This document shows positions 9,725 to 12,716 of a DNA stretch of 26,086 bases, piece by piece. Under the pieces are notes generated by a model. That model did no database searches and was not told the origin of the DNA. It saw only the letters and a list, made by a program, of their open reading frames with translations. Position 1 is the first letter of the stretch, and every line of letters starts with the position of its first letter. The stretch is from Spirochaetes bacterium GWF1_49_6 (GTDB taxonomy: Bacteria > Spirochaetota > Brevinematia > Brevinematales > GWF1-51-8), in assembly GCA_001829395.1 (NCBI GenBank), contig MIBD01000123.1:3795-29880 (forward strand), written 5' to 3'. The translations under genes were made by a program, and so were the position numbers.

Positions 9725-9943
9725 TCACTTATAACGATACACAATTCTCCCTTTGGTCAAATCATAGGGAGAGAGTTCGATATTTACCTTATCTCCGGGG
9801 GTTATCTTGATGTAATTCATCCTCATTTTTCCCGAGATATGTGCCAGAATCTGGCGTTTCCCCTCGAGTTCTACCCTGAACATCGCGTTGGGTAGCTGTT
9901 CGATGACCGTTCCGTCAAGACGGATGACATCTTCTTTGTCCAT
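9725..9943 (-). CDS. infA: Translation initiation factor IF-1
   Basis: [37 protein letters not shown]-like motif. ATG 9943 overlaps the adk stop (TGATG); the track's TTG start at 9946 is less likely. Confidence 0.97.
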
Positions 9944-10593
9944 CAAGACTTTAAAACCTCCTTTATGTCGGCAAATACTTCATCAATGTTCTTTTCGCCT
10001 TTTATTACAGTTAGGACGCCTTTTTCTTTATAATAGTTTACCGCCGCGACTGTCTGATCCTTATAGACCTTCAACCGGTTCGTAACTGTTTCGATCTTGT
10101 CGTCGTCACGGATAATCAAGTCTTCGCCTGATACATCGCACTTTCCCTCAACCTTCGGGGGATTGAAGTGGATATTGTATATCTTTCCGCTATTGACCGC
10201 GGTACGGCGGCCGGTCAGACGCTTGATCAGCTGGTTCTCGTCCACATCGATCAGTATCACATGCGTCAACGGAGCGCTGGCGAGTTTCGCGTCAAGCACC
10301 TTCGCCTGGTTCAGACTGCGCGGAAACCCGTCAAGCAGGTATCCGTTCTGGCAGTCGTCCTTGCTGATACGGTCGAAGAGTACGTCGACAACAGCCTCAT
10401 CGGGAACCAGTTCGCCGCGGCTCATATAACCGCGAATCATATCGGCGAGTTCCGATTTCCCTTCCTTGATCATCGCGCGGAATATGTCTCCGGTCGATAT
10501 ATGGGGGATGTTGAGAAATTTGCAGACCATGTCGGCCTGTGTACCTTTTCCGCCTCCGGGAGGCCCTATGAATACAATATTATACATTTTCAC
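9943..10593 (-). CDS. adk: Adenylate kinase (long LID)
   Basis: [11 protein letters not shown]-loop, [22 protein letters not shown]. Confidence 0.98.
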
Positions 10594-10599
10594 TTCCGT

Positions 10600-12252
10600 T
10601 TATCTGTTTTTCTGGGCTTTCTTGTGATGCAGGAACCCGTCCAAATGATGCATCATCATATGCGACTCCAACTGCTTCAAGCTGTCGAGAGCCACACCCA
10701 CCATAATCAGTAACGATGTACCGCCCATCAGGTAACCCATATCCTGGGGTATCTCGAGACGGTTGATAACAAACGACGGCATCAGCGCGATCGTACCGAG
10801 GAACAGCGCGCCGGGGAGCGTGATACGGCTTAATACAAATCCGATATACTCCTGCGTCTTCTGTCCGGGACGTATCCCGGGAATAAACCCGCCCTGCTTT
10901 CTCAGGTTCTCCGCGATATCGTGGGGGTTCAGTTCTATTTCAGTATAGAAGTACGCGAAGAATATAATCATCATAAAGTAAACTATCGAGTACCAGAGCT
11001 TGCCCGGCAGCATGGCATTGGTAATATCGCTGAAAAATCTCGCGACACTGCTTACCCCATGTACCTGCATCGAGTCGATCTGCCATCCGGCTTCCGACCC
11101 CTGCCCGTCAGTCTTAAAGATCAGGTACGCGGTATCGCCCGCTACACTGACGCTTTTATCGTCGAAACTACCCGTCAGTTGCTGAGGGGATTTCATCGTC
11201 TTATCATATACGTACAGGATATCTTTCCCTTTCTCGGAGCGGAAGTACGGGAAGTGCAGGATAATCATCCTCGCGCCGTCTTCTTTAATCACGTTCGTAA
11301 CATTCAGGTTCATCGGGTATCCGGCGGTATCGCCGAATCCGGGTGATGCTATACTGATCTGTTTCGTATCTTCGTAATTACCCTGCCCGATAAACTGGTA
11401 TATCTGCGCCGGCACCATCAATATGGCTGAGGCGAAGATGATCGGGATAACACCCGTGGGGTTGACCTTGAACGGCAGAAATGAGACCTGCCCGCCGGCG
11501 CCGCCGGAACCCACCATTCGCTTCGCATACTGCACGGGAATCCTTCGTAAGCCCGATTCCTCGAATACGACCACTCCTATCACTATCGCGAATAACGCGA
11601 CGACTATCAGGACGTTTATCGTATCCGGCGATGTGGTCGCGAGGTGATATAACGCTGCGGGGAGTCTCGCGATAATACCGCACATAATGATAAGCGATAT
11701 ACCGTTACCGATACCCCGTTCCGTAATCTGTTCGCCCATCCACATCAGTATTAACGTACCCGCTGTTACGGAGATGATAAACAGTATAAGAAATGTAGTG
11801 TTATCTATCAATATAAACTTTTGCGCCGAACCAGCGTTGTCGGCGATTATATTATTCCCGTAGATGATACCCTGAACAATCGTCACTAAGACGGTGCCGT
11901 AACGGCCATACTGCTGGAACTTCTTTCTGCCCTCGGGTCCTTCCTTCATCATCGCGTCAAGCTGGGGAACAACCGCAGTCAACAACTGCATGATGATCAT
12001 CATAGTGATGTAAGGCATGATACCGAGCGAGAACAGGGAGAGGTTCTTCAGACCGCCGCCTGTGAACAAGCTGATAAAATCAGTCCACGGATTACTTGCC
12101 GCACCCGCGCGGAACTCCTGCAGGATAGAAAGACTGATTCCCGGAACGGGAATATAAATCCCAATACGATAGATAATAAGCAGACCTAAAGTAAAAAGGA
12201 TCTTCTTTCTTATATCCGGAACCTTGAGTATATCGACGAGTGTCTTCAGCAT
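10600..12252 (-). CDS. secY: Preprotein translocase SecY with inserted CUB-like domain (aa ~291-398)
   Basis: LGIMPYIT, WMGEQITERGIGNGISLII, GVIPIIFASA, FIPGIRPG, GGTSLLIMVG. 550 aa versus the usual ~430-450. Confidence 0.97.
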   Translation of the reverse strand: MLKTLVDILKVPDIRKKILFTLGLLIIYRIGIYIPVPGISLSILQEFRAGAASNPWTDFISLFTGGGLKNLSLFSLGIMPYITMMIIMQLLTAVVPQLDAMMKEGPEGRKKFQQYGRYGTVLVTIVQGIIYGNNIIADNAGSAQKFILIDNTTFLILFIISVTAGTLILMWMGEQITERGIGNGISLIIMCGIIARLPAALYHLATTSPDTINVLIVVALFAIVIGVVVFEESGLRRIPVQYAKRMVGSGGAGGQVSFLPFKVNPTGVIPIIFASAILMVPAQIYQFIGQGNYEDTKQISIASPGFGDTAGYPMNLNVTNVIKEDGARMIILHFPYFRSEKGKDILYVYDKTMKSPQQLTGSFDDKSVSVAGDTAYLIFKTDGQGSEAGWQIDSMQVHGVSSVARFFSDITNAMLPGKLWYSIVYFMMIIFFAYFYTEIELNPHDIAENLRKQGGFIPGIRPGQKTQEYIGFVLSRITLPGALFLGTIALMPSFVINRLEIPQDMGYLMGGTSLLIMVGVALDSLKQLESHMMMHHLDGFLHHKKAQKNR

Positions 12253-12260
12253 GAGTTCTC

Positions 12261-12716
12261 CTACTGCTGGGATTCGATAAGTTCTACGGAACCGCCCGCC
12301 TGTTCGACTTTCAACTTAGCGGTTGCAGAACAAGCATTCACCTTAATCTTTAAACCCTTTATCGTCAGTTCGCCGTTGGCTAGAAGTTTGACCGGCGACT
12401 TATTGGACTTTATCAATCCAGACTTTCTGATCGCTTCAACCGTTACTTCCGAACCTTCCTTAAAGGAAACAAGGTCGCGAAGATTGATTATATTGAAGTA
12501 TATTTTATTAATATTCTTGAAACCGCGCTTCGGCATACGGCGGTATAACGGCATCTGCCCGCCTTCGAACCCGGGTCGTACTCCTCCGCCGGAGCGAGCC
12601 TTCTGCCCCTTGTTACCGCGACCGCAGCGTACACCCTTACCGTTACCGGAACCTCTGCCTCGGCGAATGGGACTCTTCTTGGAACCCGGAACGGGCTTAA
12701 TTTCTATAAAGTTCAT
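12261..12716 (-). CDS. rplO: 50S ribosomal protein uL15
   Basis: GRGSGNGKG, GRGNKGQKARSG, GFEGGQMPLYRRMPKRGF. Confidence 0.98.
   Translation of the reverse strand: MNFIEIKPVPGSKKSPIRRGRGSGNGKGVRCGRGNKGQKARSGGGVRPGFEGGQMPLYRRMPKRGFKNINKIYFNIINLRDLVSFKEGSEVTVEAIRKSGLIKSNKSPVKLLANGELTIKGLKIKVNACSATAKLKVEQAGGSVELIESQQ

Follow-up and report, generated by a model that had tools for sequence, protein, structure and literature searches.

SecY is among the most conserved of membrane proteins and its periplasmic face is normally nearly bare; the factors that act on it from outside, such as PpiD/YfgM, SecDF and YidC, are separate proteins. In the eukaryotic channel, the ER-lumenal loop 7 of Sec61 alpha, between TMD7 and TMD8, is expanded to about 65 residues and contains a mini-helix. 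This loop is the only large lumenal domain of the channel and is needed for the gating of soluble-protein transport, and its direct interaction with BiP has been proposed (PMC3897919). The SecY analysed here carries an additional domain in the same loop of the homologous channel. Unlike this insert, Sec61 loop 7 was not acquired as a domain that folds on its own, and it is unrelated to CUB in sequence and in fold.

CUB domains are best known from animal extracellular proteins, and the classical motif of those that bind Ca2+ is reportedly numbered by Gaboriaud et al. 2011 as C1s Tyr17/Glu45/Asp53/Asp98. The Ca2+-binding CUBs lack the extra beta1/beta2 strands and have an eight-stranded form; their Ca2+ loops form the ligand site, and the bound Ca2+ also gives these loops stability (PMC8051872). 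The bacterial CUB repeats that resemble the insert most closely belong to T9SS-sorted (Por_Secre_tail) secreted proteins, mostly of Bacteroidota, whose hosts include C10, M4, M43 and S8 peptidases and GH18. These repeats are tandem accessory modules of secreted enzymes, none of them in a membrane channel, and differ in this respect from the SecY insert, just as the animal domains, strung in extracellular arrays, differ from one lying inside a polytopic membrane protein.

The window, the whole stretch of 26,086 nucleotides that was analysed, contains secY in its canonical ribosomal spc-operon position with rplO and adk as neighbours (Table 1). L15 was called from a Gly/Arg-rich N-terminus in the sequence together with the operon position, and the adenylate-kinase-like product from a loop motif seen in the translation. 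The secY product matches PF00344 with an E value of 4.3e-105 and, over aa 15-533, the SecY equivalog TIGR00967, for which it scores 383.3 bits (cut-off 253.6). Each of the four insert-bearing genomes (G000-G003) holds one SecY copy; G000 is a MAG of 74% completeness, and the other three are 93-96% complete. Two stretches, residues 1-290 and 424-541, can be aligned with the solved SecYs of Geobacillus thermodenitrificans (5EUL/6ITC), Thermotoga maritima (3DIN), Thermus thermophilus (5AWW) and E. coli (5ABB). Hydropathy and this alignment are consistent with a ten-helix, N-in layout, the topology being borrowed from the known SecY structures. In its full-length equivalog match, predicted helices, operon slot and single copy the protein is like canonical SecY.

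Table 1. Features of the secY locus and of the inserted domain (coordinates in the window).
Feature	Coordinates	Strand	SecY residues	Description and basis
secY	10600..12252	minus	1-550	550 aa; between rplO (L15) and adk; ORF list, profiles
Upstream L15-like ORF	12261..12716	minus		151 aa; 9 nt from secY start
Downstream adenylate-kinase-like ORF	9943..10593	minus		216 aa; begins 7 nt past secY stop
TM7, lateral-gate helix	11386..11460	minus	265-289	PTGVIPIIFASAILMVPAQIYQFIG; hydropathy, alignment to solved SecYs
Inserted domain	11047..11382	minus	291-402	112 aa; alignment; absent from all insert-less relatives
CUB core	11077..11367	minus	296-392	PF00431 profile positions 7-108 of 110; Pfam
Y312 codon	11317..11319	minus	312	Tyr of the Ca2+-binding CUB signature; Tyr in 59/60 bacterial repeats
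E340...D344 (EKGKD)	11221..11235	minus	340-344	Third-fourth strand loop, equivalent to CUB L5
Invariant segment	11170..11208	minus	349-361	YDKTMKSPQQLTG; invariant in both diverged lineages
D382 codon	11107..11109	minus	382	Equivalent to CUB loop L9, motif FKTDGQGS; Asp in 54/60 repeats
Native TM7-TM8 loop remainder and TM8	10933..11046	minus	403-418 and 419-440	

The first-pass annotation of this DNA had described an extra block of 108 residues in the TM7-TM8 loop, and 11059-11382 on the minus strand encodes exactly the residues that it quoted (SecY aa 291-398). The extra block stands, but its length has to be corrected to the 111-112 aa given by alignment. Aligned with eight SecYs of the same order that lack it, the insert stands out as a clean block between conserved flanks; the gap in these relatives runs from about aa 291/292 to 402, and they realign with SecY from aa 403. 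The insert starts directly after TM7 and is absent from all 118 other top homologues, which are 423-458 aa long. The alignment to the solved SecYs breaks at Geobacillus SecY residues 288/308 and resumes from aa 424; the loop of about 20 residues in Geobacillus SecY (288-308) contrasts with about 130 here, including a folded 112-aa domain. Kyte-Doolittle hydropathy in 19-residue windows places hydrophobic segments at 261-289 (TM7) and 413-441 (TM8) and none in the insert, whose maximum is 0.49. In the established SecY topology (ten helices, N-in) the TM7-TM8 loop is periplasmic. The alignment break bears out the original placement of the insert between TM7 and TM8, and this topology would put it on the periplasmic side. 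The full-length AF2 model, calculated from a 13-sequence alignment, had a pLDDT of 47.7, which is too poor for placing the domain on the channel.

We consider it nearly certain that the insert is a real CUB jelly-roll, Cys-free, mildly acidic (pI about 4.9), with the Tyr-Glu-Asp-Asp signature kept and under purifying selection as strong as that on the channel core. With the curated PF00431 profile, whose cut-off is 21.4 bits, the insert alone reaches 27.1 bits (E 5.6e-6), the whole protein 22.2 bits, and all four insert genomes 24.4-26.2 bits. An HMM of 60 bacterial CUB repeats from proteins other than SecY gave the four inserts 78-80 bits (E about 1e-23), while its best score on 2000 shuffles was 9.3 bits. 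A profile search started from the insert retrieved 636 proteins at E<=1e-3 and 163 at E<=1e-10, and all 13 of the top matches scanned reciprocally were CUB proteins with 2-15 CUB domains each (PF00431 E 0 to 4e-24). The insert shares with the bacterial repeats the consensus Y..N...I / F..F.TE.G.D.V.VYDG / F.TD.....GW; individual repeats are 21-32% identical to it and score up to 41 bits singly. In the PDB, a sequence search with the insert ranked cubilin CUB5-8 first.

The predicted fold points the same way. AF2 modelled the insert alone as eight beta-strands with a pLDDT of 92.5 and a pTM of 0.85, and this model leans towards the CUB fold because the alignment behind it consisted of CUB repeats. 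Compared by VIA-align with 48,161 chains, it found CUB domains in all top 20 places (Z 10.3-12.8), the next chains reaching Z<=8.6, and Foldseek likewise returned CUB as top matches (probability 1.0, TM about 0.7). The structural matches span model residues 11-115, approximately aa 296-400, and searches of the ESM Atlas and AlphaFold DB agree with CUB. Curated profile, reciprocal profile search and predicted fold together confirm the PF00431 assignment anticipated in the first-pass annotation, and structure prediction with Foldseek, which it had also named, places CUB domains on top. The insert has the same jelly-roll as the animal Ca2+-binding CUBs cubilin CUB5-8 (3KQ4), MASP-1 CUB2 (3POB/3POF) and neuropilin a2 (2QQM), at Z 11.7-12.8; C1s, PCPE-1 and Kremen are further members of that group for comparison. 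Like them it is eight-stranded and keeps the Tyr/Glu/Asp/Asp positions. Unlike them it is without disulfides, shows an identity of only 16-26%, and has the short Glu-to-Asp spacing (E-x3-D) of the bacterial repeats.

The retention of the Ca2+ signature, earlier judged by eye, holds in the alignments, as Y312, E340, D344 and D382 fall in near-invariant columns of the 60 CUB repeats (90-98%; Glu at E340 in 54/60, Asp at D344 in 59/60) and have identical counterparts in cubilin CUB5. E340, D344 and D382 are also invariant in 4/4 inserts. The insert model, without the extra beta1/beta2 strands, fits the eight-stranded, Ca2+-binding form of CUB. The description of the insert as Cys-free "like prokaryotic CUB domains" has to be given up, as 57 of the 60 closest bacterial repeats contain one Cys or more. 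It is the SecY insert that is peculiar in being Cys-free: all four inserts have a Cys count of zero and hence no classical four-Cys disulfide pattern. Disulfides were taken as non-defining for the Pfam CUB family because the bacterial repeats range from 0 to 5 Cys.

Same-position inserts among SecY homologues map to one genus of uncultured groundwater spirochaetes in the order Brevinematales. Four genomes carry them, as does one additional contig from a metagenome, and the copies differ at many synonymous sites. Scans of contig patterns in genomes and metagenomes found only the close relatives DeMMO6_14, GWF1_51_8 and Ga0154538_130, and a word search of aa 270-420 in 5.8 billion proteins gave P0003 as the sole match; the insert-profile search for CUB-bearing SecYs covers the 150 representative matches listed. 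The insert-bearing SecYs form one clade with 100/100 support, nested among 45 insert-less SecYs, and this clade therefore points to a single gain of the CUB domain by SecY. No second CUB-like sequence was found in G000-G003, and 41 genomes of the order and class contain no PF00431 CUB beyond the four SecYs. No in-genome donor was thus found, and the donor was therefore probably foreign. The first-pass annotation knew of no described SecY-CUB fusion, and this is consistent with our literature searches for SecY-CUB fusions, inserted SecY domains and SecY loop insertions, which found no relevant paper.

The rarity of the feature and the 74% completeness of the G000 MAG could be read as signs of an artefact or of a non-functional sequence, whether a chimeric assembly, a mobile element resembling an intein, a pseudogene or a second SecY that is dispensable, but we regard this as extremely improbable. 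Misassembly at the junctions, a concern raised at the outset, is excluded by Logan contigs of independent groundwater studies that span both junctions without indels or joints; contig X3 (20.9 kb) differs from the window at 12 places and is free of gaps, and an X4 contig is 1.7 kb long. The recurrence of the same insert in the four genomes and the metagenome contig, the open frame and the single SecY per genome also speak against an artefact. An intein or other mobile element was rejected: no intein, HINT or transposase family was matched, the fold is CUB, and the GC and GC3 of the insert equal those of the SecY core, so that its base composition is that of the host gene.

For close pairs the insert has a dN/dS of 0.01-0.03, and against G003 one of 0.07-0.09, values equal to those of the SecY core. 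Conservation is uneven along the domain. Residues 352-355 and 357-358, within the invariant segment aa 349-361, are not conserved in the 60 generic CUB repeats and are invariant in the SecY inserts, while the two lineages differ most in aa 305-317, the distal loop that joins strands one and two. From the strand order in the insert model we infer that aa 349-361 includes a membrane-proximal loop. Arguments from conservation are thin because only two diverged lineages are available. A co-evolving periplasmic SecY surface was also considered and rejected, as the 14 clade-specific substitutions in the SecY core show no periplasmic enrichment (4/76 periplasmic positions versus 6/125 in cytoplasmic loops).

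What the domain does is a matter of graded likelihood. It is a reasonable possibility, which we hold at somewhat below even chances, that the sole housekeeping SecY took up a complete CUB domain once, after TM7, and that this domain acts at the channel exit. As a CUB pairs its first strand with its last, both chain ends would lie at one pole, tied to TM7 and TM8, and the opposite pole with the Y312, E340/D344 and D382 loops would point away from the membrane into the periplasm; this orientation on the channel is geometry deduced from CUB strand pairing. By analogy with Ca2+-binding CUBs elsewhere, the domain may then serve at the channel exit as an integral docking site that depends on Ca2+ and captures a basic (Lys/Arg) side chain, a proposal we put forward tentatively and with some doubt. 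The partner could be a periplasmic protein, for example a chaperone, foldase or an enzyme of signal or lipoprotein processing, or alternatively the emerging exported chain itself, and a docked factor would be held beside the lateral gate, as a bacterial counterpart of what Sec61 lumenal loop 7 is proposed to be for BiP. Replacement of a lost accessory by the insert was rejected: no Sec accessory is missing from the insert clade, and SecD/SecF, SecG and SurA/PpiD-type chaperones occur in genomes with the insert and in those without it. Further points weigh against docking. The acidic triad could persist only because Ca2+ stabilises the fold, and a distal loop as variable as aa 305-317 would be odd for a fixed binding tip.

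These same points lead to a less specific reading, in which the domain is a passive addition, either a spacer or anchor or a steric shield that keeps SecY-targeting proteases, toxins or phage components off the periplasmic face; it would have no specific ligand, and its Ca2+ site would do no more than stabilise the fold. Purifying selection shows that the fold matters and not that a ligand does, the distal loop differs between the lineages, and no partner or lost accessory gene was found. Ca2+ is likewise reported to aid the stability of CUB loops (PMC8051872). A bulk shield would, however, hardly need a dN/dS as low as that of the channel core, nor the retention of all four signature residues together with loops L5 and L9. 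We also know of no SecY-targeting agent for the insert-bearing organisms, and we judge a passive role improbable. [quoted passage not shown] The domain would be held tightly at the gate because it begins within two residues of the end of TM7. The segment aa 349-361, which by strand order includes the membrane-proximal loop and has two lysines, is invariant in both lineages though much of it varies in generic CUBs, and the gating of Sec61 responds to changes in its loop 7 (PMC3897919). Against this, the clade-specific core substitutions are not enriched on the periplasmic side, and a cap sitting permanently on the sole SecY would need to shift each time a substrate passes, so that gating too appears unlikely. 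Docking at the channel exit is the reading that we tentatively prefer.

The feature is limited to a single genus of uncultured organisms, and the role proposed for it is drawn from sequence, models and analogy. On a wider and rather speculative view, which we think has only a modest chance of being right, the TM7-TM8 loop would be a repeatedly used slot for receptor domains at the translocon exit, and here a horizontally acquired CUB of the Ca2+ type would couple the lateral gate to a partner or to the emerging chain. If this is true, bacteria would have a hard-wired link equivalent to the one between Sec61 loop 7 and BiP. For CUB, insertion into a polytopic membrane channel is a new host context. 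The insert indicates that the TM7-TM8 loop of SecY tolerates a 12-kDa domain and that selection can favour the hard-wiring of a periplasmic function into the channel. It may serve both as a natural handle on the events at the translocon exit and as a ready permissive site for SecY engineering.

The 550-aa product of the secY gene is SecY by every curated measure, matching PF00344 with an E value of 4e-105 and the NCBIfam equivalog TIGR00967 with 383 bits (cut-off 253.6). The gene occupies the usual place of secY, with an L15-like ORF 9 nt before it and an adenylate-kinase-like ORF 7 nt after it, and each of the four insert-bearing genomes has one SecY match. The first-pass annotation had assigned an extra domain to 11059-11382 (-), and translation of this segment indeed gives exactly the 108 residues quoted, SecY aa 291-398. 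When the protein is aligned to eight SecYs from other members of its order (438-457 aa), the insert appears as a single clean extra block of 111-112 residues (aa 291/292-402) with well conserved flanks; its presence is confirmed, and the extent first proposed was slightly short. The insert lies directly after TM7. Hydropathy places hydrophobic segments at aa 261-289 and 413-441 and none within the insert, and solved SecY chains cover aa 1-291 and 424-541, the break falling at residues 288/308 of Geobacillus SecY, i.e., in the TM7-TM8 loop. From the established SecY topology, this loop is expected to be periplasmic.

Variation was also seen elsewhere on the periplasmic side. In the insert-bearing clade, and likewise in G004, a relative without the insert, the TM5-TM6 loop (window 11620-11640 region, SecY aa 205-212, columns 228-231 of the alignment with order relatives) is shorter by four residues than in the other relatives; in the clade it also contains G207T and P211T, two of the few clade-specific SecY substitutions. 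About 19 residues, PGFQGLPEGATSFWQILGS (columns 45-63), are peculiar to the 457-aa SecY of G004 (L011:1060-2430, family f2) among all the aligned SecYs; they lengthen the periplasmic loop that joins TM1 to the plug.

The contig comes from a 74%-complete MAG, and the same 550-aa SecY is found in three more genomes belonging to the same GTDB genus, two with 96-98% identity and one with 75%. Two insert-bearing lineages are publicly named 'Brevinematales bacterium DeMMO6_14' and 'Spirochaetes bacterium GWF1_51_8'; the form of the latter is also present on one more metagenome contig, and the gene occurs in groundwater metagenomes of at least four studies. Misassembly of the insert is excluded by contigs from two studies, a 20.9-kb contig in one and a 1.7-kb contig in another, which cross both junctions with no indel and no joint. 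Eleven single-base differences were tabulated between window positions 10400-12450 and independent metagenome contigs (X3, X4 and X7); none lies inside the 324-nt insert, whose length would predict about 1.7, a non-significant deficit. Of the 120 top-ranking SecY homologues in 5.8 billion proteins, only the window SecY and that of GWF1_51_8 (P0003) are 550 aa long, the rest having 423-458 aa. The public NCBI name of P0003, 'hypothetical protein A2Y33_11080', reflects neither its SecY identity nor the CUB insert, and its precomputed Pfam column gives PF00344 alone.

Unusual SecY matches were also noted in other genomes. A same-order genome, G010, contains a second, partial SecY-like match (G010:C58:15122-15658, -), 45% identical to aa 10-194 only and situated within an 884-aa open frame, which may represent a fused gene, a paralogue or contaminating sequence. 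In G031 (89% complete, 5% contamination), six SecY matches at two places on one contig (G031:C6, 7208-8509 and 22715-24017), some with internal stops, suggest that a copy of the gene has been duplicated or has decayed, or that the assembly is faulty.

The insert belongs to the CUB family, as its host protein does to the SecY family. The CUB assignment, originally made by eye, is borne out by Pfam: PF00431 is covered over profile positions 7-108 of 110, with 27.1 bits for the insert and 22.2 for the complete protein, both above the gathering score of 21.4. Among solved structures, a profile built from the four inserts placed cubilin CUB5-8 at the top (E 0.0026), with MASP-1 CUB2 also among the matches. 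From 1.84 billion representative proteins, it retrieved 636 at E<=1e-3, 163 of them at E<=1e-10. Among the 150 representative matches listed, all have 2-16 matched stretches each, save one SecY, P0003. The thirteen top matches scanned carry 2-15 Pfam CUB domains apiece, in most cases together with a T9SS sorting domain and a peptidase or PKD module. An HMM of 60 non-SecY repeats scored the four inserts at 78-79.5 bits (E ~1e-23), compared with 9.3 for the best of 2000 insert shuffles, a very large margin that is somewhat overstated because the repeats had been picked by likeness to the insert.

The predicted fold agrees with this assignment. AlphaFold2, run on a 64-sequence alignment of inserts and bacterial CUB repeats, gave an eight-stranded model with pLDDT 92.5 and pTM 0.85, which the CUB repeats in the alignment bias towards the CUB fold. 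An exhaustive comparison of this model with 48,161 solved chains returned CUB domains in all top 20 places (Z 10.3-12.8; next Z<=8.6), including neuropilin a2, enteropeptidase, cubilin, Kremen, PCPE-1, TSG-6, MASP-1 and C1s, and Foldseek searches of the PDB, AlphaFold DB clusters and ESM Atlas likewise point to CUB. The evidence from sequence comparison stands independently of the AlphaFold2 model.

Near-invariant columns of the 64-sequence alignment correspond to SecY Y312, F334, E340, D344, Y349, G361, F379, D382 and G389. The Tyr-Glu-Asp-Asp signature of Ca2+-binding CUBs, which the first-pass annotation had recognized, is retained in these columns (see table), and HMMER aligns its four residues opposite the Tyr, Glu, Asp and Asp of cubilin CUB5. 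Ca2+-binding CUB domains are described as being without strands beta1 and beta2, with Ca2+ held between long odd-numbered loops, usually the ligand site (PMC8051872); in both its sequence and its model, the insert fits this picture. It is also free of Cys, as claimed, although the supposed likeness to prokaryotic CUB domains in this respect does not hold, since 57 of the 60 nearest bacterial repeats contain at least one Cys.

Coordinates of secY in the window and of the putative Ca2+-site residues in its product
Feature	Position	Strand	Description
secY	10600..12252	-	ORF, 550 aa
Tyr	SecY 312		Tyr in 59/60 non-SecY repeats
Glu	SecY 340		Glu in 54/60 non-SecY repeats
Asp	SecY 344		Asp in 59/60 non-SecY repeats
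Asp	SecY 382		Asp in 54/60 non-SecY repeats

The insert was apparently gained once: in a tree from the core-only alignment, its four carriers group as one clade (100/100 support) nested in 45 Brevinematales-type SecYs without it. It is under strong constraint, with Nei-Gojobori dN/dS of 0.01-0.03 (SecY core 0.01-0.08) when the three close genomes are compared with each other and of 0.07-0.09 (core 0.06-0.13) when they are compared with the distant one. A foreign origin is most likely, because PF00431 was found in 4 of the 41 genomes of the order and class, each time solely as the SecY insert, and the four insert-bearing genomes contain no paralogue of it. Its closest relatives are Bacteroidota-type secreted-protein repeats (21-32% identity). 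The GC content (0.51) and GC3 (0.63) are the same as in the remaining gene, and the insert is old enough for full amelioration.

In the AlphaFold2 model, the longest two strands are the first (aa 290-302) and the last (aa 389-402). Since the first strand of CUB domains pairs with the last, both chain ends would lie at the same pole, where TM7 and TM8 anchor them. The same strand order would put the loops with Y312 (303-316), E340/D344 (339-344) and D382 (381-388) at the far pole, toward the periplasm, and loop 350-356 close to the membrane. The stretch containing the latter loop, YDKTMKSPQQLTG, is invariant across both lineages, although many of its positions vary in generic CUBs.

As to the role, the insert is tentatively predicted to be a Ca2+-type docking module built into the exit side of the channel, which might bind a basic side chain on a periplasmic partner or on the chain as it emerges. 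The nearest functional parallel is offered by Sec61, in whose lumenal loop 7 the same loop forms the sole large trans-side domain of the channel; gating of soluble-protein transport depends on it, and direct contact with BiP has been proposed (PMC3897919). In E. coli, the exit-side helpers PpiD/YfgM, SecDF and YidC are separate proteins contacting the lateral gate and periplasmic cavity (PMC8082313). However, several observations speak against docking: the lineages differ most in distal loop 305-317, the insert-bearing clade lacks no accessory factor, and no periplasm-specific co-evolution was seen in the SecY core. An intramolecular modulator of the gate or plug seems rather unlikely, and we give equally little credence to a passive role, as a shield or a structural addition, in which the Ca2+ site would only stabilise the fold. 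That the insert is an artefact is hardly conceivable.

A literature search turned up no SecY carrying an inserted domain, CUB or otherwise; each family is known, and what is new here is their combination. SecY-CUB is restricted to a single genus of uncultured bacteria, and the role given above is a prediction. As a fact of sequence and fold it is well supported, and it would surprise a Sec specialist.
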